DNA of 64,000 nt, taken from assembly GCA_963736005.1 (NCBI GenBank), contig CAVTNB010000001.1, positions 1,856,001 to 1,920,000 of the forward strand, in the 5' to 3' direction. A program made the translations under genes and the position numbers. Positions 21,177 through 48,136 of this stretch are shown piece after piece; within the stretch, counting starts at the first letter, position 1, and the number at the start of each line of letters is the position of its first letter. The DNA is from an uncultured Pseudomonadota bacterium (lineage in GTDB: Bacteria; Vulcanimicrobiota; Vulcanimicrobiia; Eremiobacterales; Eremiobacteraceae). The notes under the pieces are model-generated. The model ran no database searches, was not told the origin of the DNA, and saw nothing but the letters and a program-made list of their open reading frames with translations.

Positions 21177-21884
21177 ATGACCGAACTGCGGCCCGCTCGG
21201 CTGCCGAAGATTCTGGTTGTCGACGATGAGGCCACGATTCTGCAAACCTTACGCTTCAATTTGGAGCGCAACGGCTACGCCGTGTGCACGGCGGGTGACG
21301 GCCGTCAAGCGCTCAGCGTTGTCGAAACCGAAAAGCCCGATCTCGTCCTGCTCGATATCATGTTGCCCGTGCTTGATGGGATAGAGGTCTGCCGCGAGAT
21401 CCGCCGCCGCTCGAGCGTGCCCGTGCTCATGCTGACGGCAAAAGATCAAGAGATCGACAAGGTGCTCGGATTGGAAATTGGAGCGGACGATTACATCACC
21501 AAACCGTTTTCCATTTACGAGCTGCTGGCGCGAGTCAAAGCGCACTTACGGCGTCTCGCGCAGCCGAACACGCAGGCCCCCAGTGCCGTGCTGCGCGGCG
21601 GCCCGCTCGAGCTTGAATTCGATCGCCAGCGCGTGACCAAAGCCGGCAAGACCATCGATCTCGCCCCAAAAGAATTTGGTTTGTTGCACGTCTTGCTGCA
21701 AAATAAAGGACGAGTGGTCACTCGACAGGTGCTGCTAGATCGCGTCTGGGGCTTTGACTTTTACGGCGATCAGCAAACCGTCAACGTTCATATCCGCTGG
21801 CTGCGCGAAAAAATCGAAGATGATCCAAACGACCCCAAGCACATCATCACCGTGCGCAGCCGGGGCTATCTGTTTCGCGACTAG
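21177..21884 (+). CDS. phoB: OmpR-family response regulator, PhoB/PhoP type
   Basis: LVVDDE, LLDIMLP, GADDYITKPFS, TVNVHIRWLREKIE; upstream of phoR-phoU-pst. Confidence 0.9.
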   Translation: MTELRPARLPKILVVDDEATILQTLRFNLERNGYAVCTAGDGRQALSVVETEKPDLVLLDIMLPVLDGIEVCREIRRRSSVPVLMLTAKDQEIDKVLGLEIGADDYITKPFSIYELLARVKAHLRRLAQPNTQAPSAVLRGGPLELEFDRQRVTKAGKTIDLAPKEFGLLHVLLQNKGRVVTRQVLLDRVWGFDFYGDQQTVNVHIRWLREKIEDDPNDPKHIITVRSRGYLFRD

Positions 21885-21898
21885 GCCACGAGCGGTTT

Positions 21899-23128
21899 TT
21901 GGCGGTACGAATCTTTCTGGGCGCAGCCCTCATCACCATCATCGTCGCGGTCTTTTTGACTGCCTCGCAAGGCCCCGCGCTCCGCGATACGGTCCTCGTT
22001 GTCGCCGTTGTGATCGCGCTTGTGCTGGCAGTCTTCTTAGCTCCGGTCTTGCAGCGGCCGCTTGCAGACCGTCCATCGGAGGCAATGGCGGCGCCGCCGA
22101 CCGGACCCAGCCTCGATCACATTCTCGACGCCCTTCCGGCAGGCGTTATTACCATCGCAGCGGATGGAAGAATCGTCGTCTTCAACGCAGCGGCGGGAGA
22201 GATGTTCGGTGTGGTTGCGGATCGCGCCAGCGGACGCACTTTGATCGAAATCGTGCGCAATTCGGAACTCGATCGGCGCGTCAGCGCGACATTGCGAGAC
22301 GGAACGACTGAGACGATCGAGCTGACGCACGTCGGCGCTGTGGAGCGCCGGCTGCAAGTCATGACGCGTCCCCTCAATGGCGACCTCAAGCCAGGTGTTT
22401 TGGTCATCGTGACGGACCAAACGCGGATGCGCGAGTTAGAGGCCCTGCGCCGCGAATTTGTCTCCAACGTTTCGCACGAACTGCGTACGCCTCTTACCTC
22501 GGTCAAACTCATGGTCGAAACGCTGCAAAGCGGAGTCGATCTTCTGGCGCAAGAGCAATTTCTAGCAAACATTGGCGCTGAGACCGATCGTATGATTGTC
22601 CTCGTGGAGGACTTGTTGGATCTCGCGCGCCTGGAAAGCCGAAAGCTCGAGCTGCGGCTGAGCACGGTTGACGTGAGCGAGCTCGGCCGGCAAGCGGTTG
22701 CGGCGCAACGTCCGCGGGCGACGGCAGCGCAGATCAATTTGGTCTTTTCGGCTCCGCAAACCTCGCTCCCGATCCTAGCGGATCGAGACAAGCTCTACCA
22801 AGTGCTCACCAATCTGCTCGACAATGCGTTGCGCCACACTCCGGCGCAGGGCAACGTCACCTTAACGGTGGCTGCCCACGATGGAGAGATCACAATCGAG
22901 GTCGCTGATACCGGTTCGGGCATCGCATCGAGCGCACTGCCGCATATCTTCGAACGGTTTTATGTCGTGGACCCGGCTCGGGCCCGCGGTCATTCGGGAA
23001 CGGGTTTGGGTCTTGCGATCGTGAAACACATCATAGAGGCCCACGGTGGCACCATCGCAGCGGAAAGCGAACTGGGTGCGGGCTCAATCTTTCGCTGTAC
23101 GCTGCCCGTGGGTTTACAAACAAGCTAA
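21899..23128 (+). CDS. phoR: Phosphate sensor histidine kinase (2 TM, PAS, HisKA, HATPase)
   Basis: EFVSNVSHELRTPLT, NLLDNA, DTGSGI, IFERFY, GTGLGLAI; TTG start. Confidence 0.9.
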   Translation: MAVRIFLGAALITIIVAVFLTASQGPALRDTVLVVAVVIALVLAVFLAPVLQRPLADRPSEAMAAPPTGPSLDHILDALPAGVITIAADGRIVVFNAAAGEMFGVVADRASGRTLIEIVRNSELDRRVSATLRDGTTETIELTHVGAVERRLQVMTRPLNGDLKPGVLVIVTDQTRMRELEALRREFVSNVSHELRTPLTSVKLMVETLQSGVDLLAQEQFLANIGAETDRMIVLVEDLLDLARLESRKLELRLSTVDVSELGRQAVAAQRPRATAAQINLVFSAPQTSLPILADRDKLYQVLTNLLDNALRHTPAQGNVTLTVAAHDGEITIEVADTGSGIASSALPHIFERFYVVDPARARGHSGTGLGLAIVKHIIEAHGGTIAAESELGAGSIFRCTLPVGLQTS

Positions 23129-23141
23129 GCGGTCCTATAAT
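23113..23141 (+). promoter_or_regulatory. Sigma70-type promoter for phoU
   Basis: TTTACA (23113-18), 17-bp spacer, TATAAT (23136-41). Confidence 0.75.
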
Positions 23142-23156
23142 GCAATGGAATACTGT

Positions 23157-23182
23157 GTAGCAGCGGACCTTTAGGGTCCGCT
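23157..23182 (+). repeat. REP-like hairpin, family A
   Basis: GTAGCAGCGGACCTTTAGGGTCCGCT; one base longer than 933-957. Confidence 0.75.
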
Positions 23183-23200
23183 CACGAGGTACCGCCAACT

Positions 23201-23944
23201 TTGGGTCGTGAGAACTTTCATCGGATCCTGGACGAAACGCAGCAAAACGTTCTGCGCATGGGCAGTTTGGTTGAAGAAGCGATCACCAAAGCGGTGGACG
23301 CATTGTCGCGCAGCGACGTCAAGCTTGCCGATGAGATCTTACGGGCCGACGATTACATTGACGACCTCAATGTTCTGATCGAGACGAACTGCCTGAATCT
23401 GCTGGCTTTGCAGCAGCCCATGGCGAGCGACTTGCGCACCATCGCGGCCATGCTCGACATCATCATCGACCTCGAGCGGATCGGCGACCACGCCTGCGAC
23501 ATTGCCCAGATCACCAAGAACCTTGCCAACGAACCGCAGCTCAAACCGCCCATCGACATTCCCCTGATGGCGGCAAAGGCCCGCGAAATGCTGCGGGAAT
23601 CCCTCGACGCGTTTTCCCATCACGACGCCGAGATGGCCCATGCCGTGCCGCAAAAGGACGACGAGGTCGACCGCCTCTATCGCAAAGTGTTCGCCGAGCT
23701 CATCCAGTTCATGACGAAGGACGCCAAGGCGATTGGCCGCGCCAGCAATCTGCTTTTAGTGGCATTGTATCTCGAGCGCATTGCCGACCACGCAACAAAC
23801 ATCTGCGAGCGCGTCGTTTACATGGTGGAGGGAGTGCCAAGAAAGCTCAAGCGGTCGGTTGTGGAGTTTGACCAGGTGCTCGCCCACAGCGATGAAATCA
23901 TGCAGTCGAGTCCAGGTTCAGTGGACCAACCAGCGGGAGGTTAG
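23201..23944 (+). CDS. phoU: Phosphate signalling protein PhoU
   Basis: QQPMASDLR, DLERIGDHA, DDEVD, LERIADHATNI. Confidence 0.96.
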   Translation: MGRENFHRILDETQQNVLRMGSLVEEAITKAVDALSRSDVKLADEILRADDYIDDLNVLIETNCLNLLALQQPMASDLRTIAAMLDIIIDLERIGDHACDIAQITKNLANEPQLKPPIDIPLMAAKAREMLRESLDAFSHHDAEMAHAVPQKDDEVDRLYRKVFAELIQFMTKDAKAIGRASNLLLVALYLERIADHATNICERVVYMVEGVPRKLKRSVVEFDQVLAHSDEIMQSSPGSVDQPAGG

Positions 23945-23951: not shown

Positions 23952-24005
23952 CTTAACCTTGCTTAACATGCCCTTAACCTACGCTTGACATCCCTCCGTT
24001 ATCGT
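23952..24005 (+). promoter_or_regulatory. Pho box array plus -10 element for pstS
   Basis: TTAAC at 23953, 23963, 23974 and TTGAC at 23985; TATCGT at 24000. Confidence 0.8.
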
Positions 24006-24080
24006 CGTATTGAGCGTCGTAGAGCATGGCTCCCCTCGGGCCGCCTCTAGTCGGCGTTGCCTCACCGACAGGAGCAAACA

Positions 24081-25115
24081 GTGAATCGTCAACGTTTCTT
24101 ATCGTGGTTCTCAATCTTCGGCCTGCTTATGTTCGCAGCGGTCGGCATTGCCTCGGCCGATCAGCAAATCACGGGCGCAGGTTCGTCGTTTGACAACCCG
24201 TTCTTCCAGCGAGCGTTTTACGAGTACAGCAAAAACAACAGCGGCGTGCAGGTCAACTATCAAAGTATTGGGTCCGGCGGCGGCATCCAACAGTTTACCG
24301 CCAAGACGGTTGACTTTGGCGCTTCGGACGTGCCGCTCCAACCAGCGGAGATGAAAGCGGCTCAAGCATCCAATGGTGACGTCGTCCAGGTTCCCGTCAC
24401 CTTGGGCGGCGTGGTGGTCGCGTACAACGTGCCAAACGTTAACAATCTGAAACTAACCCCCGACGTGCTCGCCGACATCATGCTCGGCAACATCACGAAT
24501 TGGAACGACCCGCGCATCGGCCGCTTGAACCCTGGCGTCACATTTCCGAACCTTCCGATCCTCGTCGTCCATCGCGCGGATGGCAGCGGCACGACGTATA
24601 TTTTCACCGACTATCTGAGCAAGGTAAGCGCCGACTGGAAAAACAAGGTCGGCAACGCAAAGGTGGTCAGCTGGCCAGCGGCGTCGTCGGTTGGAGTCAA
24701 AGGCAACGAGGGAGTCGCTGGGCAAATTAGCAACACTCCCGGCGCGATTGGGTACGTCGAGCTCGCGTATGCGCTTGATAGCAAAATCTCATACGCGGCG
24801 ATCCGCAACAGCGCAGGCCAGTTTGTCGTTCCGACCGTCGATACCGTCCGAAACGCGGCTGCGCACAAACCGAGCGTGAGCCCGCAAGACTTCTCGATCG
24901 TCAACATGCCAGGGGCGGACAGCTATCCGATCTGCGGCTATTCCTGGGTGATGTTGTGGAAGAACCAGTCCGACGCGGCCAAGGGACAAACGCTCGTCAG
25001 TCTCTTCCGATGGCTGGTGACAGATGGACAGGCATTGGCAGTCCGGGTTCGCTACGTCAGTCTGCCGGCGAACGTGCAGGCGGAGGCAACGAAGGCGCTG
25101 GCCAGCATCCACTAG
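24081..25115 (+). CDS. pstS: Phosphate ABC transporter substrate-binding protein
   Basis: TGAGSSF, YQSIGSGGG, DFGASD, HRADGSGTT, GYVE; GTG start after CAGGAG. Confidence 0.97.
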   Translation: MNRQRFLSWFSIFGLLMFAAVGIASADQQITGAGSSFDNPFFQRAFYEYSKNNSGVQVNYQSIGSGGGIQQFTAKTVDFGASDVPLQPAEMKAAQASNGDVVQVPVTLGGVVVAYNVPNVNNLKLTPDVLADIMLGNITNWNDPRIGRLNPGVTFPNLPILVVHRADGSGTTYIFTDYLSKVSADWKNKVGNAKVVSWPAASSVGVKGNEGVAGQISNTPGAIGYVELAYALDSKISYAAIRNSAGQFVVPTVDTVRNAAAHKPSVSPQDFSIVNMPGADSYPICGYSWVMLWKNQSDAAKGQTLVSLFRWLVTDGQALAVRVRYVSLPANVQAEATKALASIH

Positions 25116-25145
25116 TACATCCACCGGTTCCAAGACCTAAGTTCG

Positions 25146-25193
25146 GGAAGGCGGTGCGGCCCTGGCTAACAAACCAGCGCATCGCCTTCCTTT
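25146..25193 (+). terminator. Stem-loop between pstS and pstC (partial terminator or mRNA stabiliser)
   Basis: GGAAGGCGGTGCG pairs with CGCATCGCCTTCC, followed by TTT. Confidence 0.65.
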
Positions 25194-25223
25194 GATACAA
25201 GAGATGACGGACGGTCAAGATCG

Positions 25224-26210
25224 ATGACCCAGAATGGCGCCGACGTTGTGCGTGTACCAGCGGTTACGACGCCGGCGCGTTTGCGTTCGTCCTCAAACCC
25301 CATCGGCGATCGTATCGTGATTGGCGCCTTCTCGGTAAGCGCATGGCTCGTGCTGCTCATGGTCGTCTGGTTATTTGTCACGCTGCTGATTGCAGCGTGG
25401 CCTGGCATCAAGACGGTGGGCATCCACGCGTTTCAAAGCGCTACCTGGGATCCGACGGGCCGTCGATACGGGCTCCTCTCCTTCATTTACGGCACTGCGG
25501 TCACGTCTGCAATCGCGCTCGTGTTGGCTGGGCCAGTCGGCATCGGCGCAGCCCTCCTTTTGGCGGAGATCGCGCCGCGCAGGTTGGCGACACCGGTTGC
25601 CATGCTCATCGAGCTGCTAGCGGCGGTTCCGAGCGTGGTCTTCGGCATTTGGGGTCTCTTTGTGCTCGCACCCGTGATGCGGACCGTGGTCGAACCGGCC
25701 CTCGCGCGCACGCTTGGCTTTCTTCCCCTATTCCAAGGCTACTTTTACGGCGTGGGCATGCTGACCGCAGGCATTTTGCTCGCCATCATGGTGCTCCCAA
25801 CCGTGTCGGCCATCTCTCGCGATATCTTCGAGGCCGTGCCGCGCGACCAACGCGAAGCCATGTACGCGCTGGGAGCCACCAAATGGGAAGTACTAACCCG
25901 CGCGGTCATCCCCTATGCGCGCCCGGGTATTATTGGAGCCCTCGTTCTCGCTCTCGGCCGCGCGATGGGCGAGGCGATGGCCGTGGTGATGGTCATTGGC
26001 AACAAGCCGGCAATTTCGATGTCGCTTTTTTCTCCCGCGTACACGCTGGCCTCCGTTCTGGCCAATGAATTCAGCGAGGCGACGGGGCAAGAATACGTTT
26101 CCGTGCTCGTCGGCATCGGGTCGATGCTCTTCATCGTTAGTATGATCGTCAACGTGTTCGCGCGACTGTTGGTGCGCGGCGTGCGCGGGCCAAAGGGTAC
26201 GCGGGCCTGA
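25224..26210 (+). CDS. pstC: Phosphate ABC transporter permease PstC
   Basis: ELLAAVPSVVFGIWG, REAMYALGAT, GRAMGEAMAV. Confidence 0.97.
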   Translation: MTQNGADVVRVPAVTTPARLRSSSNPIGDRIVIGAFSVSAWLVLLMVVWLFVTLLIAAWPGIKTVGIHAFQSATWDPTGRRYGLLSFIYGTAVTSAIALVLAGPVGIGAALLLAEIAPRRLATPVAMLIELLAAVPSVVFGIWGLFVLAPVMRTVVEPALARTLGFLPLFQGYFYGVGMLTAGILLAIMVLPTVSAISRDIFEAVPRDQREAMYALGATKWEVLTRAVIPYARPGIIGALVLALGRAMGEAMAVVMVIGNKPAISMSLFSPAYTLASVLANEFSEATGQEYVSVLVGIGSMLFIVSMIVNVFARLLVRGVRGPKGTRA

Positions 26211-27046
26211 TGTCGCTCTTCGTCCGGCAAGCTTGGAACGCAATCATGCTTGTCGTGGCATGGTTATGCGCTGGAGTAGCCGCCGCGTTGCTCGCGCTGA
26301 TCGTGATCTATGTTATTCAACGCGGTGGACCGGCGCTCAACGTACAGTTCTTCACGCATCTTCCGACCCCGGTTGGGATCCCAGGCGGCGGCGTCGCCAA
26401 TGCTGCTGTCGGGTCGCTCATGATCATCGCGATGTCTTCGGCGATCGCGATCCCGATTGGAGTCCTGGCCGGGATTTATCTGGCGCTGCTCGGGCGCGGC
26501 TGGTTGGCGCAAGCCGTGCGATTCCTCAGCGACGTCTTGACTGGCGTGCCCTCGATTGCCATCGGGTTGTTTGCCTATACCATCATCGTTGTACCCCAGC
26601 GCCATTTCTCCGCGATCTCTGCCGCGGTCGCGCTCGCCGTCATCATGTTGCCCATTGTCGTGCGCACCACGGAGGAGGCCGTCCGACTTGTGAACCCGGC
26701 AATTCGAGAGGGCGCCCTTGCCCTCGGGATGGAGGCGTGGAAGGCGATCGTGCTGGTCACCGTACCCTGTGCGCGCGCCGGCATCGTGACGGGTTCACTT
26801 CTCGGGATCGCACGCGTTGCCGGTGAGTCGGCACCGCTGCTGTTTACCGCTTTTGGCAGTCAGTTCTGGAGTTTGAATCCCAACGGACCAACGGCTGCGC
26901 TGCCGCTACTCGTCTTTCAATATGCCATCGCGCCGTACAAAGATTGGCAGCTCGCGGCCTGGGGTGGCGCGTTGACGCTGATTCTCCTTGTTTTTGTGCT
27001 CAACATTACCGCCCGGATTATTTTCCCGGCACGGCTGCCACGATGA
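26210..27046 (+). CDS. pstA: Phosphate ABC transporter permease PstA
   Basis: [37 protein letters not shown]. Confidence 0.97.
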
Positions 27047-27840
27047 GCAACGCAACCGAAGCGGCAGAGAAATCTCTCTATACCAAAAATCTCAGCGCCT
27101 GGTATGGCACGCACCTTGCCGTCCGGGGCGTCTCAATGGATTTTCGGCCTGGTCAGATCACGGCGCTCATCGGCCCATCCGGATGCGGCAAGTCGACACT
27201 GCTCCGCTGTCTCAATCGCATGCACGAGATCATTCCTGGAACGCGGGTCGAGGGCGAAGTTTGCCTGGATGGTCAAAACCTTTACGAGCCGGGGGTCAAT
27301 CCGACCGCCATGCGGCAGCGCATCGGCATGGTCTTTCAACGGCCCAACCCATTTCCAACGATGTCGATCCTCGAGAACGTGCTCGCGGGCGTGCGCTTGA
27401 CGAATATGACGAGAAACCGTGGCGTCCTCGCCGAGCTTGCCGAACACAGCCTTCGGAAGGCCGCGCTTTGGAACGAAGTCAAGGATAAGCTGCATGACTC
27501 CGGCGCGTCACTCTCCGGCGGTCAGCAGCAGCGGCTGTGCATCGCGCGCGCGCTCGCCGTCGAACCGGAGGTGCTGCTGATGGACGAGCCGGCATCTGCG
27601 CTCGATCCCATTTCAACGACCAAGATCGAAGACTTAATGCGTGAGCTCAAAGGCGCGTACACGTTCATCATCGTCACGCACAACATGCAGCAAGCGGCGC
27701 GTGTGTCGGACTTCACCGGATTTTTGCTCGCAGGCGAAAATGAACCCGGTCAGCTTATCGAGTTTGACGTGTCCTCAAAGATCTTCACGACCCCAAAAGA
27801 TAAGCGGACCGAAGACTACATCACTGGCCGTTTCGGCTAG
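27043..27840 (+). CDS. pstB: Phosphate ABC transporter ATPase PstB (canonical)
   Basis: [44 protein letters not shown]. Confidence 0.98.
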
Positions 27841-27981: not shown

Positions 27982-28036
27982 ATTAAGCCATTCTTAACTC
28001 ATACATTATGCATCGTTAATCCAACGACGGTAATCT
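27982..28036 (+). promoter_or_regulatory. Pho box array plus -10 element for the TonB-dependent receptor
   Basis: TTAAG 27983, TTAAC 27994, degenerate unit near 28005, TTAAT 28016; TAATCT at 28031. Confidence 0.7.
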
Positions 28037-28096: not shown

Positions 28097-30796
28097 ATGC
28101 GTTTGGATAGATGTGCTGCTCTTTTCGCCGCCCTTGCCATGCTGTTGGGGCTGTCGCCATTGACCGCGGTGGCCGATACGGCCTCGGGCACGAGCGTTGT
28201 GGGCTCGATCGTCGACACGGACGGCGGGCTAGCCATTCCAGGTGCGGGTATCGATTTGTACTGCCAAGGCGCGCATGTACAGCACACAACCACCGCGCGG
28301 GACGGATCGTTTTTCTTCAACGACGTGACCCCGGGGGTGTGCACGCTCTTGGTCACGGCATCGGGCTACCAATTGGCTCGGTCGGCAAACATTCCGGTGG
28401 CTGCCGGAGCGCGGGTCGAGTTCCGCGTCGCCTTGACGAGGATATCATCCGCGGCTGCAGCACGCACGATTGGCCGGGTTATCGTCGCAGCTTCGAACAC
28501 GCTGCAAACCAGCTCGACCATCAACACGCACATCGATCCCAGCATCCTGCAGACGCAGAATTACATGCGGGCGGGCGATGCGCTCATCTCCGTCCCGGGT
28601 GTCAACATAGCAACGAGTTCCTCGCTTGGCGACGACCAGTCCGTCAGCATTCGTGGATTCGAAGCGACTGAAACTGCGACGCTGCTCGACGGCCATCCCA
28701 TTGGGCCGATTGGTGCCTTGGGCAACGGTTTTGATTATCAGGACTCGCCTTTTTTCGGGATCCGCGATATTGAAACGGTCTTCGGCTCGGGGGCAACCGG
28801 AGTCTATGGCGCATCAACGATTGCCGGTGCGGTCAACTTTCTGACCATCAACCCGACCCCGCAGATCCACGCGCTCTTCGAGCAAGGCGCGGGCTCCTAC
28901 GGGAAAGCTCTTACCGGCATACAGACGACCGGGACAGAAAACAAACTCGGATTTGCCTTCTCCCACGGCGTCGAGGGAACGTACGGTCTTTTTCCGCCAT
29001 CCGATCAGGTTGAATCCGGACTCAACGGATCGGACATCCGTGCCGCGACGTTCGCAACGAACACCTATGTCGTGAGCAGTGATTACGTCCTTCGAAACGA
29101 TGTCGGCAAGCTGACGTACGCATTTTCACCGAAGACCAATTTTTTGCTCAGCGCGTACTCCGCGACCACCTGGGATGACAAGAGTGGCAATGGTGATAAT
29201 GACTTTCTCACCTATCAGCAGAACCTCTACAATACGTTCAAGGGGCTCAATGGTAATGGTGGCAAATCCAGCGTTTGCCTCAGCAGCTGCGGAACGCCCC
29301 AAGAAGTCGACGGCAATTGTTCCAATTTCACCCAAGCAGCCCTGAGCGATGCCCCAGCCGGCTTCTCGTGCCTGAACCCGTACAAGTTTTCTCAGGAGAC
29401 TTCGGGGCCCTCAGGCGGCGGCGGCGGCCCTTGGCAGGCGATTCGCAACCAAGACTATCACGCGCGGCTCACGCAAGGGTTGGGGCAGGGCCAAATCAAC
29501 GTCGACACTTACATCGACAAATACGGATTAGACTACAACCGTGCCGCAGCAAACCAGTCGTTCCATAGCGACTTCTATCGAACGACGGGTTTGCTCATCG
29601 ACGATGAGTTTGCGAGCACGCTGCATAACATCGCATTCGGCTACAACTATCAGCACCAGCAGCACACCGGCGACACGTTCCCGTTCTTTGATCAGAACGG
29701 CAATCAGTTTAACATTTTGGCCGCGAACCAAGAGTTTGACCTCAACCAAAATAATTTCTTCGCGCGCGACGAATACACGCCGAATTCGAAACTCTCGATC
29801 TTTGCAAATCTCTGGCTTAATCACTCGGCCAATACGGGTAAGAACTCGTTCGACCCGCGCCTGACATTCCAATTTCGCCCAACCGGCGTGGATATCGTTC
29901 GACTGACGGCGGGGCATTCCAACAGCGAGCCGGATCCATCGCTCCTCTATGCGATGCCGTCGTACAACACGACCCCCAACAACATCAATCCACTGTGCGG
30001 CGCACAACTCAACGGGATAGGGAGCGTCAGCAATCCGACGCTCTCACCGGAGACGGCTACCGACGCAGAGGTCTCCTACGGGCGGCGAATCGGATTGCTC
30101 GATACCCTCGAAGTGGACGTGTATAATACGACAGAGTTCAACGCTCTGTTCAGCGGCAATCTGCCGCTGTCAGCACTGGGGAGCACGCAGGTGCCGCCAA
30201 GTCTCATCGCCGCCTATCTCAGACGCATCCAGAATTTTTGCCATAACAACCCCACGGTTGCCGACCTCGCGGTGAGCACGACGTACAACGCGGCGTCAGC
30301 GCGCTATCGTGGTATTCAGCTTTCGGGCAATTTCGGGCTTCTGCCTCATTTTACGGCGAACGCAGATTATGACGTCCAATCGTCAACCTATCTTGGCGTT
30401 CCCGACGCGATCCTTGCCTCCAATGTGACCATCATTAACGGCTCGCAGATCTACGGGATTCCGCTCCACAAAGCCAACTTGGGCTTCGACTACAACACCC
30501 CAAGCGGTCTCGACGTCGAAATCGACGGGCACTATATTGGAGATGGCAACAGTTACAACCGTCCGCATTTCATCTTCACCAATGCAAGCATTTCCCAGCA
30601 GGCCAACCGCATCACGACAACGCTGGGCATCAACAACATCTTCAACACCGCTGCGCAGCGCTACGGCTATTTCGGACTTGGTGTGTTTCAACCCGAGAAC
30701 AAATTCGGCGCAGACCAAAATGCCTTCGATCAGAGCAGCGAAGAATTTGGTATCCCGCCGCTTCAGTACTTCTTCACGATGACGTACAAGGTCTAG
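28097..30796 (+). CDS. TonB-dependent receptor with N-terminal carboxypeptidase-regulatory-like domain
   Basis: Signal peptide, plug motifs (VPGV, SIRG, LLDGHP, AGAVNFLT), LSPETA, GINNIFN, terminal amphipathic beta strand. Confidence 0.9.
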   Translation: MRLDRCAALFAALAMLLGLSPLTAVADTASGTSVVGSIVDTDGGLAIPGAGIDLYCQGAHVQHTTTARDGSFFFNDVTPGVCTLLVTASGYQLARSANIPVAAGARVEFRVALTRISSAAAARTIGRVIVAASNTLQTSSTINTHIDPSILQTQNYMRAGDALISVPGVNIATSSSLGDDQSVSIRGFEATETATLLDGHPIGPIGALGNGFDYQDSPFFGIRDIETVFGSGATGVYGASTIAGAVNFLTINPTPQIHALFEQGAGSYGKALTGIQTTGTENKLGFAFSHGVEGTYGLFPPSDQVESGLNGSDIRAATFATNTYVVSSDYVLRNDVGKLTYAFSPKTNFLLSAYSATTWDDKSGNGDNDFLTYQQNLYNTFKGLNGNGGKSSVCLSSCGTPQEVDGNCSNFTQAALSDAPAGFSCLNPYKFSQETSGPSGGGGGPWQAIRNQDYHARLTQGLGQGQINVDTYIDKYGLDYNRAAANQSFHSDFYRTTGLLIDDEFASTLHNIAFGYNYQHQQHTGDTFPFFDQNGNQFNILAANQEFDLNQNNFFARDEYTPNSKLSIFANLWLNHSANTGKNSFDPRLTFQFRPTGVDIVRLTAGHSNSEPDPSLLYAMPSYNTTPNNINPLCGAQLNGIGSVSNPTLSPETATDAEVSYGRRIGLLDTLEVDVYNTTEFNALFSGNLPLSALGSTQVPPSLIAAYLRRIQNFCHNNPTVADLAVSTTYNAASARYRGIQLSGNFGLLPHFTANADYDVQSSTYLGVPDAILASNVTIINGSQIYGIPLHKANLGFDYNTPSGLDVEIDGHYIGDGNSYNRPHFIFTNASISQQANRITTTLGINNIFNTAAQRYGYFGLGVFQPENKFGADQNAFDQSSEEFGIPPLQYFFTMTYKV

Positions 30797-30799: not shown

Positions 30800-30853
30800 A
30801 TTAAGCCGCCTTAACCCGCAGTTGATAGTTCCTTAATGTTCGGCCCGTAGACT
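30800..30853 (+). promoter_or_regulatory. Pho box array plus -10 element for the SLH porin
   Basis: TTAAG 30801, TTAAC 30811, TTGAT 30822, TTAAT 30833 (10-11-11 spacing as at pstS); TAGACT at 30848. Confidence 0.75.
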
Positions 30854-30930: not shown

Positions 30931-32664
30931 ATGCGAAAACACCGGCTGCTTCTTGCGTCGGCGGTTGTCTGCGCTGTGTTCGCCCTCGCGATTCCGGCGC
31001 TCGCCGACGATTCTAACCCAGTGCCGGCTCCGGCCGCTTCCGCAACGTCCGCGGCGCCCGACGCAGGGGCGGTCGCGACCGCCAGTCCTGGAAGCGGTGC
31101 GAGCAGTGCAGACGGAATTGGCGTTTCCATCGCCACCGGGGACAACAACCCGTTTGCCGACGTTCCCACGGACTCGTTTGCCTACAAGGCCATCGTGCAG
31201 CTACACGATTTGGGTTATCTCAAAGGGTATCCGGACGGGTTGTTTCATGGCAAACGTAACCTCACACGCTACGAAATGGCGGTCATGGTCGACCGCGTTG
31301 TGAACGAGCTCGAGTACCAGCTCCACGATCCCAACGGAGCGGTCCGAGTGAATGCTGCGGCCATCGCCGATGCCCGCATGCTGCTCGATCAGTATGGGTC
31401 GCAGATCAAGGACCTGCAAACCAAAGAAGCCGCGCTAGATACCCGCCTGACCACCGCGGAGACCACGCTCAACCGCATGCAAATCCATGCGTACGCATAC
31501 GTTCGCGCTCCCGGCACCTATACCGAAACCGTGAGCGCATTCCAGCCAAATGGCACACCGTTGAAGCCTGGGACGATTGTCAAAGATGATGCGCAAAGCT
31601 ACGTGGTCGGCACCAACTCGCGTGGAACGGGCTACTCGGTCTTTCGTCTCATCATTCAAGGCGACCTCGACAAGCAAGCCAGCTATGCCGTGCGTTTGGA
31701 AAACAAGAACTTCTTTGGTCAAGCCAACGTCAACGGCCTCGACAACGTGAATCCAGCCGGGCCAACCACGAGCACGTATAACACAGGTGGGCTCTTACGC
31801 TTGAACTACGCGTATCTGAAGTATCAATTCACGAACTCGCCTGTCTATCTCGAGGCTGGCAAGTACACGCTGCGCAGCGACCCGCTCGGACTCGCGTATG
31901 ACAATGACTACTACAATGGCGGACTCTTTGGTTTCAAGAATTCGAAGGTGTATGGCTGGCTGGGCTTCGGCCAGACCGGAGGCCCGGATCTTGGCAGCAC
32001 TTCTCCGTTTGCCTACGTGCCCGGTCCAGCTTCGAGTGGAGCTGTGCCGAACACCCAATTCATCGTCCTCGCGCATGTCGGCGTGACTCCAACAAGCCGC
32101 GCACTCATAACGGGAAGCTGGGTTGAACTCCAAGGTTATAAGAACAACTTCTGGTGGACCTTGAAGCAGACGTACCAGCCGCTCCAGGCAAATTTGTCAG
32201 TCGGCGCCATAGGCGCCAGCTACCAGTTCGGTCCCTCGCTCAATCTCGCGGTGCAAGGCTTGACTCGATTCGGCAACGACCCGACAACGTTGAAAGGATG
32301 GACCGACAACAAGGCATTCTGGGGCGTTGTCAATGTGGGTCACACGGCTCAAAAAATCAACAACAACTTCATGGAGCTAGGGTGGATCGGTACTGGCGCG
32401 CACTCCGTGCTCAACCCGGAGACGTGGGTCAACGGCACGCCCTTCTACACTTTTTACTATACCGGTCAGGCCAACGACCGTAAGATGGCCTACATCGGGG
32501 TGCACCACTGGGTGAGCAATTACATGCGCGTTGGCCTTAACTACCAATATTGGGGGATCAACACGCCACTTCCGTTGTTCTCAGGCACGGGCGTTCCAGC
32601 TGGTTCGTACATCATGAACAACGACAACCGCGCGCTCTTTCTGAACACGCTCATGCAATTCTAA
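30931..32664 (+). CDS. SLH-domain outer-membrane beta-barrel protein (OmpM/SomA-like porin)
   Basis: Signal peptide, SLH motif FADVPTDSFAY...GYPDG...TRYEMA, coiled-coil stalk, beta-rich region, C-terminal Phe. Confidence 0.88.
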   Translation: MRKHRLLLASAVVCAVFALAIPALADDSNPVPAPAASATSAAPDAGAVATASPGSGASSADGIGVSIATGDNNPFADVPTDSFAYKAIVQLHDLGYLKGYPDGLFHGKRNLTRYEMAVMVDRVVNELEYQLHDPNGAVRVNAAAIADARMLLDQYGSQIKDLQTKEAALDTRLTTAETTLNRMQIHAYAYVRAPGTYTETVSAFQPNGTPLKPGTIVKDDAQSYVVGTNSRGTGYSVFRLIIQGDLDKQASYAVRLENKNFFGQANVNGLDNVNPAGPTTSTYNTGGLLRLNYAYLKYQFTNSPVYLEAGKYTLRSDPLGLAYDNDYYNGGLFGFKNSKVYGWLGFGQTGGPDLGSTSPFAYVPGPASSGAVPNTQFIVLAHVGVTPTSRALITGSWVELQGYKNNFWWTLKQTYQPLQANLSVGAIGASYQFGPSLNLAVQGLTRFGNDPTTLKGWTDNKAFWGVVNVGHTAQKINNNFMELGWIGTGAHSVLNPETWVNGTPFYTFYYTGQANDRKMAYIGVHHWVSNYMRVGLNYQYWGINTPLPLFSGTGVPAGSYIMNNDNRALFLNTLMQF

Positions 32665-32670
32665 AGGCGT

Positions 32671-32696
32671 GGGGCGATTTTCCAATCGCCCCCTAC
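32671..32696 (-). repeat. REP-like hairpin, family C
   Basis: Reverse complement GTAGGGGGCGATTGGAAAATCGCCCC. Confidence 0.8.
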
Positions 32697-32731
32697 AGGT
32701 CTGCTGCTACGAGCAGCAAGAACACGCTCCC

Positions 32732-33541
32732 ATGGCAAGGCCTTGGGAGCGGCTTTTTGTTGGGGCGGCTGGGCTTTTTGCTTGGTGCGTGATCCTCACG
32801 CCATTTTCAATCGTGACGGTTCTCATGGTTGCCGCGCTCGCGGGTCAGCAGCGGCCCGATCCGTTGTTCTTTCTGGGGAATCTCGTCGTTGAGCTTTTTG
32901 CCACGCTGCTCGTCGGGGTTGTGGGAGCGGTTATCGGCGCCAGCATCGGCATTGGCACGGCCCTGCTCACCCAGGAGCTCGTGACAGGAAGGCTGAGCCA
33001 AGCCATCGGCGCTGCCACTTCGGGTCTCTCAGTGTTTCCAGCCGTCGTGCTGGGCTGGTTCGGCGCGACCCTGATTCTGCCGGCTCTTTCCGGCCACACT
33101 CCGGGCGCCGTTTTTGCTGCCGCCTGCGTGGTGGTGTCCATCGCTGTCATTTCGCGATCGAACGTGCTCGCGGTCCGCTTGCTCGGCGCGCTCGCACCTT
33201 CGGTCCGCGAAGCCGCCGCAGCTGCGGGTGCCGGTGCGAGCCGAGTGACGGCACACGTGACGATCCCGGCGTGCAAGCGGCAATTGCTCGGTATCTATGC
33301 AGATGCGCTGTCCAGAGCAGTTGGTGAAGCAGCGGGCGTTTCCGTTGTGTTCCTGGCCGCTGCGCGGGCCGGATATCCCGTGTCTCTCTTTACGATACCG
33401 AGCTCGATCATGGCGCATGCGCACACGATGCAATTGATCGATGCGGGCATCGCGCAATCAGCGCTTGTGGTTTTGGCCTTTGCCGCGACGAGCAAGATCA
33501 TCGCAGCACGCCGAATTGGGAGCCTCCAGTGGGTCTCGTGA
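32732..33541 (+). CDS. Divergent PstC-like permease
   Basis: VFPAVVLGWFG, REAAAAAGA (EAA loop) and SRAVGEA align to PstC; start placed at ATG 32732. Confidence 0.8.
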   Translation: MARPWERLFVGAAGLFAWCVILTPFSIVTVLMVAALAGQQRPDPLFFLGNLVVELFATLLVGVVGAVIGASIGIGTALLTQELVTGRLSQAIGAATSGLSVFPAVVLGWFGATLILPALSGHTPGAVFAAACVVVSIAVISRSNVLAVRLLGALAPSVREAAAAAGAGASRVTAHVTIPACKRQLLGIYADALSRAVGEAAGVSVVFLAAARAGYPVSLFTIPSSIMAHAHTMQLIDAGIAQSALVVLAFAATSKIIAARRIGSLQWVS

Positions 33542-34350
33542 CCGTCGGCACGCCGAAACCGGACACGTTTCGGTCGCGCGACGTGCTTGTCACGGCGCTC
33601 TCGTACATTGCCGGAACGGCCGGCGCGATGGCGTTCGTGGCCGTGCTGGTCGCGCTCGTTGCTCTTGGTTGGCAAGATTTCGCACGAGTGCTTGCGGTGC
33701 CGCAGGGGGCAGGGAGCGCGCTCGCCATTTCGGCACTCGTTCTTGCGATCGCCTTGCCAGTGACGTTTGCGATCGGCCTGTGCGCCGCGGTGTGCGCAAC
33801 GGATCCTAGCATCGGTGGCGTCGCGACTCGCGCGGTGCGTGAGTCCCTGGAGTGGTCGGTAGGCATACCGCCCGTTGTTATCGGCGTGGCCGTTTTTTTT
33901 ACGGTCGTGGCCTTCGTGCACTCATCGGTTGTCGGCGCGGCCGCTCTCGCCCTCATCGTCTTGAATCTACCCAACGCCACTGCCCGTTTGGCACAAGCAT
34001 TCTCGGGCGTTCCCGAAGTGGCGCGCGAAGCTGCAGCGGCCCTTGGAGCCTCGTCTGCGTCAGCGTTTTTTGGGTTGACGCTCCCGCAATCGGCATGGGC
34101 GGTCGCCGCAGTACTCTGTGCTCTCGCTGGGCAGATGGTCGGTGAGACCTCCGCGGTTGTGCTGGCAGTGAGCGCAAGCGGCGGAGCGCAACCACTCTCT
34201 GCCGCGATTTGGCACTTTGCTTCGAATGTGAGCCTAGCTGCGACCGAGGCCGCATCGTGTCTTGTTCTCGTGCTCGTCGTGGCGGCTTGCACGGCGCTGT
34301 CGAAAGATTTTTCCCGCAGACAGCTCGAAACATCGGCGACCAAAACGTGA
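33529..34350 (+). CDS. Divergent PstA-like permease (conserved transport Arg replaced by Gln)
   Basis: GIPPVVIG, REAAAALGA, AGQMVGETSA versus canonical [10 protein letters not shown]. Confidence 0.8.
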   Translation: MGLVTVGTPKPDTFRSRDVLVTALSYIAGTAGAMAFVAVLVALVALGWQDFARVLAVPQGAGSALAISALVLAIALPVTFAIGLCAAVCATDPSIGGVATRAVRESLEWSVGIPPVVIGVAVFFTVVAFVHSSVVGAAALALIVLNLPNATARLAQAFSGVPEVAREAAAALGASSASAFFGLTLPQSAWAVAAVLCALAGQMVGETSAVVLAVSASGGAQPLSAAIWHFASNVSLAATEAASCLVLVLVVAACTALSKDFSRRQLETSATKT

Positions 34351-35126
34351 GCACGCAAGGCGGACCAACGGTCGAGACGAAGCTGGAAGCATCGCAGTTG
34401 CACGTTTGGTTCGGCGATAAGCACGCACTGCGCGGCGTGAATATCTCAGTCGTTGCGGGCAGAACGGTCGCTTTCATAGGGGCATCCAAAAGTGGCAAGA
34501 CGACGCTGCTTCGATCGTTCAATCGGTTGCACGATCTCAATCCGCGAGCGCGGCTGCATGGCAGCGTCAAAATCGACGGAGCTGAGATTTTAGGACCAGG
34601 CGTCGACGTTGCCGCGCTGCGACGCCGTGTCGGAATGACCTTTTCCACACCCACCGTCCTCCCGACATCGATCTTCGACAACGTCGCGTTTGGGTTGCGC
34701 GCAAAAGGGCTGCGCGATCGCATCCTGATCGAAGAGAAAGTAGAGCGTTCGCTGCGTCGGGTGCTTCTTTGGGATGCGGTCAGCCCGCTGCTCGATCGTG
34801 CGCCCTCGGATCTCACCATCGAACAGCTCCAACGGCTCTGTCTCGCTCGCGCGATGGCGCTCGACCCAGAAGTGCTGCTTTTTGACGACCCAACCGCAAC
34901 ACTCGATCCCGTGGCCGGACTCGCCTTCGAAGAAGTCTTCATACCACTGCGCCGCGACCATACCGTGCTCATCGCCACAAATAATTTGGAACAGGCGGCC
35001 CGACTGTCGGACACGACGTGCTATCTCGCCAGCGGTGAAGTCATCGAGAGCGGCGAAACCCCGCTTGTTTTCAGCCGGCCGACGGATACGCGAACCGAAG
35101 ACTTCTTGGCCGGCAGATCGCCCTAA
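34347..35126 (+). CDS. PstB-like ATP-binding protein with degenerate catalytic motifs
   Basis: Clear PstB paralog (GKTTLLRSFNRLHD, QAARLSD, RTEDFLAGR) with LTIEQ, LLFDD, ATNN and TFS; GTGA overlap with the pstA-like gene. Confidence 0.88.
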   Translation: MSTQGGPTVETKLEASQLHVWFGDKHALRGVNISVVAGRTVAFIGASKSGKTTLLRSFNRLHDLNPRARLHGSVKIDGAEILGPGVDVAALRRRVGMTFSTPTVLPTSIFDNVAFGLRAKGLRDRILIEEKVERSLRRVLLWDAVSPLLDRAPSDLTIEQLQRLCLARAMALDPEVLLFDDPTATLDPVAGLAFEEVFIPLRRDHTVLIATNNLEQAARLSDTTCYLASGEVIESGETPLVFSRPTDTRTEDFLAGRSP

Positions 35127-45138: not shown

Positions 45139-45165
45139 AGGGGCGACTTTCCAGTCGCCCCCTAC
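45139..45165 (-). repeat. REP-like hairpin, family C, overlapping the pqqE stop
   Basis: Reverse complement GTAGGGGGCGACTGGAAAGTCGCCCCT, with a compensatory change relative to the GATT/AATC copies. Confidence 0.8.
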
Positions 45166-46227
45166 AGACGACGCGGGATCAGCGCAGCCTCGGGTTCACT
45201 GGTCAACTGTTCTACCAAATGATGCTTGGGTGACTTCGAGCAGGCGGGGTCGGTGAGGCCGGCGTCGCCCGCCAGCAAGAACGCCTGGCAGCGACAACCG
45301 CCGAAATCGATCTCACGCCGTTCGCACGAGCGGCATGGCTCTGGCATCCATTCGATACCGCGGTAAGCGCGAAAAGCCTCGGACTCGTTCCAAATTTTGG
45401 AAAGCGGGTGATCGCGTACGTTTTCAAAGTGCAGTGTCGTTATCGATGCGGCAGCTGGACAGGGCAACACGCGACCATCGGGGACGATCGTCAAGAACTG
45501 TCTTCCCCAGCCATTCATACACGGTTTCGGGAATTCTTCGTAGTAATCCGCAAGGACATACGTGATCTCCATGCGGCCGCGCAAGCGCTCGCGCGCTGCC
45601 CGTACGATCGCACCGGCGCGCTCGACTTGGGCACGCGTCGGGATGAGCGCGCGACGGTTGCGAAAGCCCCAGCCGTAAAATTGTGTGTTGGCGAGCTCGA
45701 GCCGCTTGACGCCGATTTCTTCCGCGAGGGAGATGACGTCATCAATCTCATCGATATTGCGCGAATGCAGCACGCAGTTGATCGTTACCGCAACGTTGCG
45801 CGCAAGCGCCCGCTTCAGCGCTTCGAGCTTGCGCTCGTGCACCTGCGTGCCGGCGATGGAATCAGCCAATTCGGCGTGCGCCGCTTGCAGGCTGATCTGC
45901 ACGTGATCGAGGCCGGCGGCGAGCATGCGGTCGAGCAGGTTTTCGCTGAGGAACGTTCCTTGCGTGATCAGGTTGGAATACACGCTCCGTTCTCGCGCAC
46001 GCCGCAGAATCGCGCAGCAGTCGTCTGGACGCAAGAGTGGGTTCACCGCCCGAAAGATGAAGCTGCACGACGCCGAGCGCTGCGGCCTCGTCAATCACGC
46101 GGCACCACACGTCAGCATCGAGCTCTTCGCGGTACGCAGCAAGATCGAGCGGATTGTAACAGTACGGACACTGCAGGTTGCAACGGTACGTCAGCTCCGC
46201 GAGCAGCGACAATGGACGATACGGCAT
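45162..46227 (-). CDS. pqqE: PqqA peptide cyclase, radical SAM/SPASM enzyme (one extra base near 46040)
   Basis: [51 protein letters not shown]; removing one C from GAACCCACTC restores GGEPLLRPD. Confidence 0.93.
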
Positions 46228-46502
46228 TAGTGCGTTTGGGCCGCGGGAAGGACGAGCCAAGTTTTTGATGCCAACCGCTGGAGCAAGTCTTCGATGTCGC
46301 TTGCGATAGCTGCGACATCCATGCTATACCGAGTGGCGAGGAGCGCAGCGATCTCCATCGTGGTACGTTGGCCGTCAACGAGCTCGATGATTGCGGCGGC
46401 CGAGTCGTTGAGATTCACGACGCCTTCGGGAATGAGGAGTAAGCCTTGCCCGTCGGCTGACCGGCGGAACCGTACCCCCTGGGCAAGCGCCGGCGCGTTC
46501 AC
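46227..46502 (-). CDS. pqqD: PqqA-binding chaperone (RRE domain)
   Basis: [28 protein letters not shown] overlap with pqqC and TAATG overlap with pqqE. Confidence 0.92.
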
Positions 46503-47230
46503 GCCCGCGGCTCCGCTCGCCCAGCGCCATAGGCTAAGATGGTGGCGTCGAGAATCGCCCAAAGCACGTCGCATTTGAACTCGAGGGCGCGTACGCACGC
46601 GTCTTGCAAGTCTTCGGTGGTTGCGCCTTCAACGACCCAATCCAAAGCGTCGCGTGCGTCGCGCGGCGCGAGCGTCATCCGGTTGCGAAAATACGCAAGA
46701 CCCCGCTCGTCGATCCACGGATACTTTTCGCTGAGCACCACGATGCGCCGGGCCATCAGGTCTGGCGCGAAGAGCTCGGTGAGCGAAGACGCAACCGCCA
46801 TGAGCCATGGCTGCGTGCGAGCAAACGTCACGTACGCATCGACGGCAAATCGAGTCCCAGGCTGCACGTGCCGCTCGTCTGTTACTTCGTCGTCGCGAAA
46901 GCCGACGCCGCGAGCAAGAGCCAGCCACGAGTCGATGCCGCCGCCCCCGCGTTCGAGCGTCCCGTCATGGTCGGTAATGCGTGAAATCCATATCCGGCGT
47001 TTGTCGCGATCGGGAAGATTGGAGAGAATTGCGGCGTCTTTTACCGGGATGCTCTTTTGATAGTAGTAACGATTGGCCACCCAGCCGCGAATCTGATCGG
47101 GCGTCAGGATGCCCTCGTGCAGCGCGAGATGAAAAGGGTGCTTATCGTGATAGCGTGCGGTTCCGACGGCCCGCAAACGCTCAACGAACTTCGTCTGCGC
47201 GTGAGTATACGTCGGTTGCGTGGTCGCCAT
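46499..47230 (-). CDS. pqqC: Pyrroloquinoline-quinone synthase
   Basis: YHDKHPFH, WVANRYYYQKSIPVKDA, RITDHDG, RFAVDAY, SSLTELFAP, FKCDVLW. Confidence 0.96.
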   Translation of the reverse strand: MATTQPTYTHAQTKFVERLRAVGTARYHDKHPFHLALHEGILTPDQIRGWVANRYYYQKSIPVKDAAILSNLPDRDKRRIWISRITDHDGTLERGGGGIDSWLALARGVGFRDDEVTDERHVQPGTRFAVDAYVTFARTQPWLMAVASSLTELFAPDLMARRIVVLSEKYPWIDERGLAYFRNRMTLAPRDARDALDWVVEGATTEDLQDACVRALEFKCDVLWAILDATILAYGAGRAEPRA

Positions 47231-48119
47231 CCAGCACGATCTCCAAGCCGTCATCAGGGACGGCGAATCCGGCCGCTGCAAGCTCGCTTGCCTGCGCCGA
47301 TGCCGGATCGAGAATCGGATTGGAATTGTTGACATGGGTGTAATACCGATACCGTGCACGAATTCGACGCATGTCGTCAAGCGAGCCACCAGGCCCAATC
47401 ATCGGCGCGTGGCCCATATCGCGAGCGGTGCGAGTGCCCAATCCGCATTGGATCATTTCGTCGTCCGTCCAGCAGGTTCCGTCCAAGAACACCGCGTCCG
47501 CACTCGCTGCCTCGCGCTTGAGCTTGTCGTCGACGGCCAGGAAGATCGGCGCGTATACAGCGCTTGCTCCCATGTGCTCGAATCGGTAAGCAACGGTAGC
47601 GGATGCGTGCTGCGCGTCACCCGCATAGGAAGGCAAACGACCGGGCACGGGGATGGCGGAAATTGTCAGACCGTCAATCTCCGGGAGGTCGCAACGCGCT
47701 GCCTCGGGCTTTGCATCGAAAGTGCGCCACGAATGCGGCGAATTCGCGAATCGGGCAAACATCGGCGCGGCGGTCAAGGTGTCTTTGACAAGTGTGGTCG
47801 ACCAGATTGAAAATGCTGGAGCTTGGCGAAATTCGAGCAATCCTGCGGTGTGATCGATATTCGCATCGGTGAGCAACAGCGCCGCAATCGGGCTGCTTCG
47901 TTTCCGAGTGGGCCATAACGATGGTGTCGCGGCCAGTTGAGCCGAGATGTCGCAACCGGCATTCACGAGAATCCAGCGCTGGCCGTCACCGGTCACCGCA
48001 AGCGAGGCGACTCGCCTGCTCGGCAGCCTCCCAGAGCGCACAGCCGTGCAGTTAGGGCAGTCGCAGTTCCACTGAGGGATCCCACCGCCGGCCGCAGTTC
48101 CTAAGACCTTAATTCGCAC
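47181..48119 (-). CDS. pqqB: PQQ biosynthesis protein B (metallo-beta-lactamase fold)
   Basis: VLGTAAGGGIPQWNCDCPNC, DANIDHTAGL, DGTCWTDDEM, MGH, HVNNSNP; GTG start. Confidence 0.95.
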   Translation of the reverse strand: MRIKVLGTAAGGGIPQWNCDCPNCTAVRSGRLPSRRVASLAVTGDGQRWILVNAGCDISAQLAATPSLWPTRKRSSPIAALLLTDANIDHTAGLLEFRQAPAFSIWSTTLVKDTLTAAPMFARFANSPHSWRTFDAKPEAARCDLPEIDGLTISAIPVPGRLPSYAGDAQHASATVAYRFEHMGASAVYAPIFLAVDDKLKREAASADAVFLDGTCWTDDEMIQCGLGTRTARDMGHAPMIGPGGSLDDMRRIRARYRYYTHVNNSNPILDPASAQASELAAAGFAVPDDGLEIVLDGDHATDVYSRADEVR

Positions 48120-48136
48120 GTCGCGCCCCACCAAAT

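Follow-up and report, generated by a model that had tools for sequence, protein, structure and literature searches.

Identification of the pstC2-pstA2-pstB2 trio

We analysed a stretch of 64,000 nucleotides (hereafter the window) of contig CAVTNB010000001.1, from an uncultured bacterium of the Eremiobacteraceae. Besides a canonical pst cluster, the window encodes two diverged permeases of the PstC and PstA type, followed by a PstB-like protein that has kept the fold of an ATP-binding cassette (ABC) nucleotide-binding domain (NBD) and lost its catalytic motifs. These three genes, called here pstC2, pstA2 and pstB2 (the trio), and the motif positions of the third one are listed below, together with the canonical pstB of the window, which was used as comparison copy. 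Models were computed with AlphaFold2 (AF2).

32732..33541, + strand: pstC2, diverged PstC-like permease, 269 aa when read from the ATG of its homologues (TIGR02138 42.7 bits; AF2 fold)
33529..34350, + strand: pstA2, diverged PstA-like permease (PF00528 34.1 bits; TIGR00974 52 bits)
34347..35126, + strand: pstB2, degenerate PstB-like nucleotide-binding subunit, 259 aa (Pfam and NCBIfam scores, alignments, AF2 model)
34479..34502, + strand: Walker A GASKSGKT, which fits GxxxxGK[ST] (sequence, motif table)
34644..34646, + strand: Q-loop position S100, Ser for Gln (alignments to both canonical PstB proteins)
34812..34826, + strand: signature L156-Q160, LTIEQ for LSGGQ (alignments, motif table)
34875..34889, + strand: Walker B LLFDD, Mg-binding Asp retained, catalytic Glu replaced by Asp (D181 at 34887) (alignments)
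34980..34982, + strand: H-loop position N212, Asn for His (alignments)
26944..27840, + strand: canonical pstB, given as the listed open reading frame (ORF), the true start being probably later (TIGR00972 366.8 bits, all motifs canonical)

The start of pstB2 was placed at a GTG codon (34347), so that the gene overlaps by 4 bases with the end of the upstream ORF, whose TGA stop is at 34348-34350. This choice is supported by homologues of 259-260 aa, which cover the protein over 99-100% of its length. The same 4 nt constitute the overlap of pstA2 with pstB2, and pstA2 overlaps pstC2 by 13 nt.

Motif state of PstB2

The PstB2 protein is 41% identical to the canonical PstB of the window and aligns without gap over its full length with Escherichia coli PstB (9k3x_C), the identity being 40-41% over the canonical comparisons. 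In E. coli numbering the changes are Q98 to S, S155/G156/G157 to T/I/E, E179 to D and H210 to N. A first-pass annotation, made from the letters of the window, had described a PstB paralog deprived of four catalytic motifs with an intact Walker A; the alignments to both canonical proteins bore out this description, and the positions given for S100 (34644), LTIEQ (34812-34826), D181 (34887) and N212 (34980) were exact to the nucleotide. Besides the P-loop, PstB2 retains the Walker-B Asp, the A-loop aromatic residue and the C-terminus RTEDxxxGR typical of PstB.

Scoring against the Pfam and TIGR family models, as the same annotation had proposed, gave a concordant picture. With PF00005 (ABC_tran, threshold 25 bits) PstB2 scored 71.9 bits versus 120.1 for the canonical copy, and with the PstB model TIGR00972 it reached 262.0 bits, below the cut-off of 343.2 that the canonical copy exceeded with 366.8. 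The AF2 model of PstB2, built with 89 homologues, had a predicted local distance difference test (pLDDT) of 93.8. Its closest structure in the PDB was E. coli PstB 9k3x_C (TM-score 0.90/0.95, root-mean-square deviation 1.4 A), and its top PDB matches were all ABC NBDs. PstB2 is an ABC NBD by its fold, its Walker A and the hhhhD pattern of its Walker B, and departs from that class by its catalytic Glu, LSGGQ, Q-loop Gln and H-loop His positions. It lies below the PstB equivalog cut-off and yet is encoded with permeases of the PstC/PstA type.

A conserved clade of degenerate PstB2 proteins in Eremiobacterota

Homologs were searched in a space of 5.8 billion clustered proteins. We retrieved 94 PstB2-like clusters (P0001-P0094) sharing 53-97% identity with PstB2, after which the identity dropped abruptly to the 45-49% of canonical PstB proteins (P0095-P0120). 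All 12 clusters of the PstB2 clade carrying an NCBI name were from Eremiobacterota, a phylum of soil bacteria. In the motif table, the Q-loop Gln was present in 0 of the 93 clade members covering that loop, while the canonical matches displayed the Q, DE and H residues in 26/26 cases and LSGGQ in 24/26. A profile search over 1.84 billion representatives recovered the clade as one single cluster at 50% identity, with 448 bits, the next match scoring 307. Cluster look-ups for PstB2 returned its own cluster (78 members, Vulcanimicrobiota being the commonest phylum) and generic PstB clusters. In the phylogenetic tree the clade was monophyletic, with a value of 99 in the Shimodaira-Hasegawa-like approximate likelihood ratio test (SH-aLRT), and fell outside the clade of canonical Eremiobacterota PstB.

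We then described the clade position by position in an alignment of 89 of its sequences (A1), 33 columns of which are invariant. The residues expected to hold nucleotide were conserved: G45, G50, D180 and D187 were found in 89/89 sequences each, the A-loop position was aromatic in 77/89, and Walker-A Lys51 was Lys in 62 sequences and Arg in 27. The 27 Arg51 sequences belong to one subclade in which Arg51 is paired with Trp160 in 27/27 cases; this pairing counts as a single phylogenetic event and has no evidential value. The Q-loop residue was Ser (29), Gly (27), Thr (19), Pro (5), Ala (4), Asn (2) or another residue (3), and Gln in 0/89. At the catalytic position (D181) we counted 86 Asp, 2 Glu and 1 Asn, and at the H-loop position 86 Asn, 1 His, 1 Asp and 1 Thr. 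The first Gly of the signature was conserved in 3/89 sequences and position 3 of the signature took 16 different residues. The last Gly was found in none of the 89, its place being occupied by Asp (63), Glu (20), Ala (3), Val (2) or Ile (1), so that 83/89 residues are acidic there. By comparison, in a set of 113 canonical PstB proteins (assembled without one canonical ORF of locus L005, and tabulated without S155), Q98, G157, E179 and H210 were 100% conserved and G156 98%. The contrast between the two groups goes well beyond what chance would give. Because the substitutions are fixed across the clade and nearly absent from canonical PstB, they are not sequencing errors, an eventuality that the first-pass annotation had named as fatal to its claim and that clade-wide fixation excludes.

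A scan of genomes yielded 80 loci, 5 of which (L001-L005) encode the degenerate gene, at 57-71% identity; the other PstB-like ORFs of the 80 loci were canonical in 88/88 cases. The ratios of nonsynonymous to synonymous substitutions (dN/dS), calculated by the Nei-Gojobori method between related loci, were 0.067 (L003/L004), 0.165 and 0.182 for pstB2, 0.15-0.35 for pstC2 and 0.21-0.36 for pstA2, as compared to 0.03 for canonical pstB and 0.08-0.14 for canonical pstC and pstA, with dS values of 0.7-1.1 which bring the more distant pairs near saturation. All three genes of the trio are thus under purifying selection. That pstB2 could be a decaying duplicate, or an artefact of assembly, is suggested at first sight by the presence in the window of a badly frame-broken alaS and by the faster evolution of pstC2 and pstA2 relative to their canonical counterparts. 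Against it stand the ORFs of the trio, intact in the window and in 5/5 related loci, dN/dS values of 0.07-0.36, the 33 invariant columns over 89 sequences and the recurrence of the same substitutions in 94 independent clusters. We give this explanation next to no credit, and a reading of pstB2 as a sequencing error or a pseudogene was discarded on grounds of conservation and selection.

Partner permeases PstC2 and PstA2

The permeases encoded upstream of pstB2 were more difficult to classify. The start of pstC2 was set at ATG 32732 by a 100%-identical cluster of 269 aa (P0154). The Pfam scan of pstC2 gave no match, and its best NCBIfam match was PstC (TIGR02138); the AF2 model, with a pLDDT of 75, comprises six long helices and has E. 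coli PstC as best PDB match (TM-score 0.67). For pstA2 the best NCBIfam match was the PstA model TIGR00974, with the 52 bits listed above and a cut-off of 193. The best NCBIfam and PDB matches of PstC2 and PstA2 are thus PstC and PstA, with scores far under the cut-offs. Both proteins display the EAA coupling loops.

In E. coli the phosphate site is described as formed by PstA Arg220 and PstC Arg237, with a Glu bracing either residue, and the periplasmic P1 and P3 loops as docking PstS (PMC12976172). The equivalents of Arg237 and Glu241 were present in PstC2 in 39/39 family members covering the site (of the 41 members examined, one was truncated and another garbled). In PstA2, a Gln occupies the Arg220 position in 32/32 close family members, and was also obtained in the phmmer alignment. 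Among the related loci, L001 has Glu at the Arg220 position, L002-L004 have Gln and L005 has Arg; at the Arg237 position L002-L004 have Leu and L005 has Arg. As compared to the canonical permeases of the window, PstC2 has lost about 38 residues and PstA2 about 25, all located in periplasmic loops. The permeases of L005 are as short as those of the window (271 and 269 aa).

In the window and in the related loci, pstB2 was always accompanied by its own permease genes, and in the window, L002 and L005 it shows translational coupling with pstA2. We conclude that pstB2 is not a lone paralog and that it belongs to a whole second, vestigial Pst-type complex, PstC2-PstA2-PstB2. These permease genes had been overlooked by the first-pass annotation, which proposed that PstB2 could form asymmetric heterodimers with PstB. 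Such a pairing, conceivable on either permease set, would resemble the heterodimeric ABC transporters with one degenerate site. It would draw on the location of both genes in one cluster, about 6.5 kb apart, and on the existence of tandem pstB-pstB pairs, seen in other phyla as well as at the Eremiobacterota locus L055, which shows that systems with two PstB proteins do occur in this group. However, each ABC site combines the Walker motifs of one subunit with the LSGGQ of the other (PMC12976172), and PstB2 is defective both in the Walker-B/Q/H set and in the signature: neither composite site would be consensus, both being defective. Moreover, pstB2 is the sole NBD gene after pstC2-pstA2 and is coupled to its own pstA2 in the three loci named above, and the tandem pairs found elsewhere are fully canonical (88/88 PstB ORFs outside the clade). 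The heterodimer is accordingly very unlikely.

Gene neighbourhood and Pho-box-like repeats

The order of genes in the window is phoB-like, phoR-like, phoU, pstS, pstC, pstA, pstB, a TonB-receptor-like gene, an SLH porin-like gene, pstC2, pstA2 and pstB2, followed by cystathionine beta-synthase (CBS) and cystathionine gamma-lyase (CGL) genes. The features preceding the trio are:

21110-21123: Pho-box-like repeat 5' of phoB
21177..23944, + strand: phoB-like, phoR-like and phoU genes (Pfam)
23953..23988, + strand: Pho-box-like repeats 5' of pstS, CTTAAC about every 11 bp
24057..27046, + strand: canonical pstS, pstC and pstA (Pfam, NCBIfam)
27983..27997, + strand: Pho-box-like repeat 5' of the receptor gene
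28097..30796, + strand: TonB-dependent-receptor-like gene (CarboxypepD_reg and Plug; Pfam)
30801..30836, + strand: Pho-box-like TTAA repeats 5' of the porin gene, period of about 11 bp
30931..32664, + strand: SLH-domain outer-membrane porin-like gene (PF00395; weak NF033921 match, 33.6 bits)
32665..32731, + strand: spacer between the porin gene and pstC2, 67 bp, two hairpins and no T-run (minimum free energy -30.9 kcal/mol, z -2.45)

The order phoBR-phoU-pstSCAB-...-pstC2A2B2 was kept in 4/4 loci of sufficient length; in these four, the canonical pstCAB genes are found upstream of the trio, and the CBS and CGL genes known from the window come directly after it. The receptor gene upstream of pstC2A2B2 is conserved in L001-L004. 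It stands alone between the canonical pst genes and the trio in L001, and is accompanied by a phosphoesterase gene (PF04185) in L002. In L005, a gene encoding a PstS paralog (PBP_like_2) begins 10 bp after pstB, and the trio follows pstSCAB-pstS2. We considered this PstS2 as evidence for transport and found it weak, the L005 permeases being equally short.

A search for TTAA-N6-7-TTAA in the 64 kb returned 5 matches, located before phoB, pstS (two), the receptor gene and the porin gene, for a chance expectation of 0.08; five matches were obtained in 0/100 shuffles. Similar repeats occur after pstB in L002 and L004 and before pstS in L005. With their period of about 11 bp and their CTTAAC core, the Eremiobacterota repeats resemble the cyanobacterial Pho box, whose consensus is given as CTTAACCT (PMC1906773). 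The CTTAAC-core repeats are a candidate PhoB site for Eremiobacterota. A scan for promoters and terminators detected 17 terminator-like sites versus 15.8 expected. We infer that the trio may come under Pho control by read-through from the preceding genes.

Several observations were made on these neighbours. The TonB-receptor-like and SLH porin-like proteins, located behind Pho-box-like repeats, are candidate outer-membrane proteins of phosphate starvation. In L002 (5613-8277), a gene combining a beta-propeller with the PF04185 phosphoesterase lies between the receptor gene and pstC2 and is broken up into two ORFs that overlap, pointing to a frameshift or an assembly error. L003 (DASRXC010000092.1) is labelled Candidatus Binatus; its pstB, pstB2 and gene order are those of the Eremiobacterota loci L002 and L004, both of its PstB proteins fall within Eremiobacterota in the tree, and it is probably mis-binned.

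Comparison with known systems

Canonical PstB (9k3s, 9k3x and 9k3y; TIGR00972) resembles PstB2 in its fold, its RTEDxxxGR C-terminus and its position after PstC/PstA-type genes, and differs from it by the Q-loop Gln, the SGG of the signature, the catalytic Glu and the H-loop His that PstB2 lacks, as well as by partner permeases that are diverged and trimmed in the case of PstB2. Other degenerate sites are known among ABC proteins. NBDs such as those of TM287/288, BmrCD, TAP1/2 and the Rv1273c/72c homologue are likewise described as carrying other residues in place of the catalytic Glu and the switch His while keeping nucleotide binding. In such heterodimers the Walker-side and signature-side defects are carried by different subunits, leaving one consensus site. 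PstB2, in contrast, gathers both defects in one chain, is encoded by a single NBD gene and belongs to a type I importer. An ABC architecture is also used for purposes other than pumping in CFTR, SUR and the regulator-sequestering MalK. In these proteins at least one ATP site remains competent, and their kinship to PstB2 is at the level of the superfamily.

The separation of Pst transport and signalling is reportedly the subject of a study by Cox in 1988, as its title says. More recently, the E. coli substitutions PstA R220Q and PstC R237Q/E240Q have been reported to block transport and leave signalling intact, and PstB Q160K (open) and E179Q (closed) to signal sufficiency and starvation, respectively; in the leading model, the conformation of the transporter, rather than the flux, is the signal to PhoR (PMC5775613). 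The substitution of the R220Q mutant, Gln for Arg at this position, occurs naturally in PstA2. However, the E. coli mutants were engineered with single changes and have no other Pst system, whereas PstC2A2B2 bears many changes and is encoded beside an intact system. In the literature that our searches reached, we found no description of a PstB protein or Pst system in which every catalytic motif is degenerate. Degenerate sites are known in heterodimeric exporters, and transport-dead signalling Pst mutants are known from the laboratory.

Possible role of the PstC2-PstA2-PstB2 complex

Our best reading, held at somewhat less than even confidence, is that PstC2-PstA2-PstB2 is a hydrolysis-dead, Pst-derived complex kept for a role other than transport, and that this role is most probably regulatory, within phosphate signalling. 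The first-pass annotation had suggested a pseudo-ATPase able to bind nucleotide and unable to close, and this part of its proposal fits the sequence, in which nucleotide-holding residues are kept and the elements of closure and catalysis are gone. PstB2 would still hold nucleotide through its P-loop, Walker-B Asp and A-loop aromatic residue. Since it lacks LSGGQ, the catalytic Glu, the His and the Q-loop Gln, it would neither form the ATP-sandwich dimer nor hydrolyse ATP at a useful rate. The acidic residue of the signature would take the place of the second signature Gly, opposite the gamma-phosphate site of the partner subunit, and this conserved carboxylate may repel ATP or mimic its phosphate. 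PstB2 would dock on PstC2 and PstA2 via their EAA coupling loops. With its trimmed periplasmic loops, and with a Gln in PstA2 instead of the phosphate-binding Arg220, the complex would be unable to go through an import cycle driven by PstS.

The least certain step concerns the function. PstC2A2B2 may be a conformationally locked dummy transporter, produced alongside Pho-regulated genes, that feeds a fixed or nucleotide-dependent signal to PhoU/PhoR, for instance by damping or setting the Pho response. It would then be a natural counterpart of the transport-dead, signalling Pst mutants of E. coli. This signalling role taken by itself is possible though doubtful. The wider proposal, that a whole ABC importer has been turned into a signalling-only or otherwise non-pumping device and is one of a larger class of PstB-derived pseudo-ATPases, seems to us rather unlikely as it stands.

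A number of points weigh against the regulatory reading. The 67-bp spacer before pstC2 carries no Pho-box-like repeat, and two hairpins separate the porin gene from pstC2, so that co-transcription is an assumption. As far as its sequence goes, the complex could be locked either open or closed, and its signal could accordingly have either sign. A contact of PstB2 with PhoU or PhoR is hypothetical: the PhoU-PstB2 contact prediction gave a score of 0.00 for a mark of 0.32 and, run without controls, speaks neither for nor against binding. The surface positions E142, D145, R146 and T189 (E. coli numbering) are 93-100% conserved in canonical PstB and variable in the clade, and if they carry the PhoU contact, this contact would be lost in PstB2. 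A residual or altered chemistry could explain why Asp and Asn are nearly fixed at the catalytic positions. Finally, the L005 subclade, the one carrying Arg for the Walker-A Lys, keeps both transmembrane arginines, follows a PstS paralog and appears more transporter-like.

An alternative is a working transporter or channel, slow or unorthodox, for phosphate or another anion, which would either use Asp and Asn in place of Glu and His or be gated by nucleotide binding alone, as CFTR is. In its favour are the catalytic positions, where an acidic residue and an Asn are conserved (86/89 each), the intact P-loop, Walker-B Asp, A-loop and EAA loops, and the purifying selection acting on all three genes. 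The genomic context can be read in the same direction, with the PBP_like_2 PstS paralog directly upstream in L005, where both transmembrane arginines are present, and with neighbours of phosphorus acquisition (receptor and porin, and the phosphoesterase in L002). However, the signature is variable, with 16 residues at its position 3, and a carboxylate occupies in 83/89 sequences the position at which the Gly backbone meets the gamma-phosphate. The Q-loop Gln is absent from 89/89 sequences, and 27/89 have Arg in place of the Walker-A Lys. The docking loops on the periplasmic side are shortened, and most lineages no longer have the phosphate-binding arginines. Furthermore, the E179Q substitution alone is stated to abolish most of the ATPase activity of the E. 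coli transporter (PMC12976172). On balance we regard this transporter or channel as unlikely, and keep a non-transport role as our preferred reading.

How PstSCAB informs PhoR of phosphate is a long-standing open question. If the preferred reading is true, a naturally transport-dead Pst complex, maintained by selection beside a working one, would be a ready tool for testing the model of conformation as signal. It would also mean that a type I ABC importer could survive the loss of every catalytic motif, a case of which we found no description in the papers reached by our searches. As the PstB2 genes are labelled "phosphate ABC transporter ATP-binding protein" in databases, the annotated phosphate-uptake capacity of Eremiobacterota would be overstated by one system.

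Other degenerate PstB lineages

We examined the 149 representatives ranked next after the PstB2 clade in the profile search, 146 of which could be scored. The number of motifs lost was 0 in 104 of them, 1 in 8, 2 in 18, 3 in 9 and 4 in 7; at least 3 of the 4 motifs were thus lost in 16/146 of these top representatives outside the clade, counts which do not measure prevalence given that the query profile favours degenerate sequences. P0249, P0273, P0283, P0288, P0297, P0319, P0342 and nine others have lost 3-4 motifs and are separate from the Eremiobacterota clade by sequence, and some of these proteins, such as P0270, also have Arg for the Walker-A Lys. In the tree, the PstB2 clade and other degenerate sequences were grouped together with a weak support and a risk of long-branch attraction. 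Judging by their motifs, putative PstB-derived pseudo-ATPases are not confined to Eremiobacterota.

Other observations

A solitary canonical pstB, placed right after phoB-phoR and without adjacent pstSCA, occurs in many other members of the Eremiobacterota (Vulcanimicrobiaceae and relatives). This arrangement was seen in L016, L017, L020, L021, L024, L026, L028, L032, L044, L077 and L079. In L055 (9132-10750), two canonical pstB genes are arranged in tandem, and the two PstB types form separate clades.

Elsewhere in the window, alaS (16550-19176, + strand) exhibits at least 5 frame changes, the PF01411, tRNA_SAD and DHHA1 parts being distributed over frames 0, 1, 2, 1, 0 and 2. The region is the most G+C-rich of the window (66.8%) and corresponds either to indel errors of the assembly or to a pseudogene of an essential gene. 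Finally, a pyrroloquinoline quinone (PQQ) cluster was found at 45162-48140 (- strand), comprising a PqqE-like radical-SAM/SPASM protein, PqqD, a PqqC-like protein of the TENA/THI-4 type and a PqqB-like metallo-beta-lactamase.

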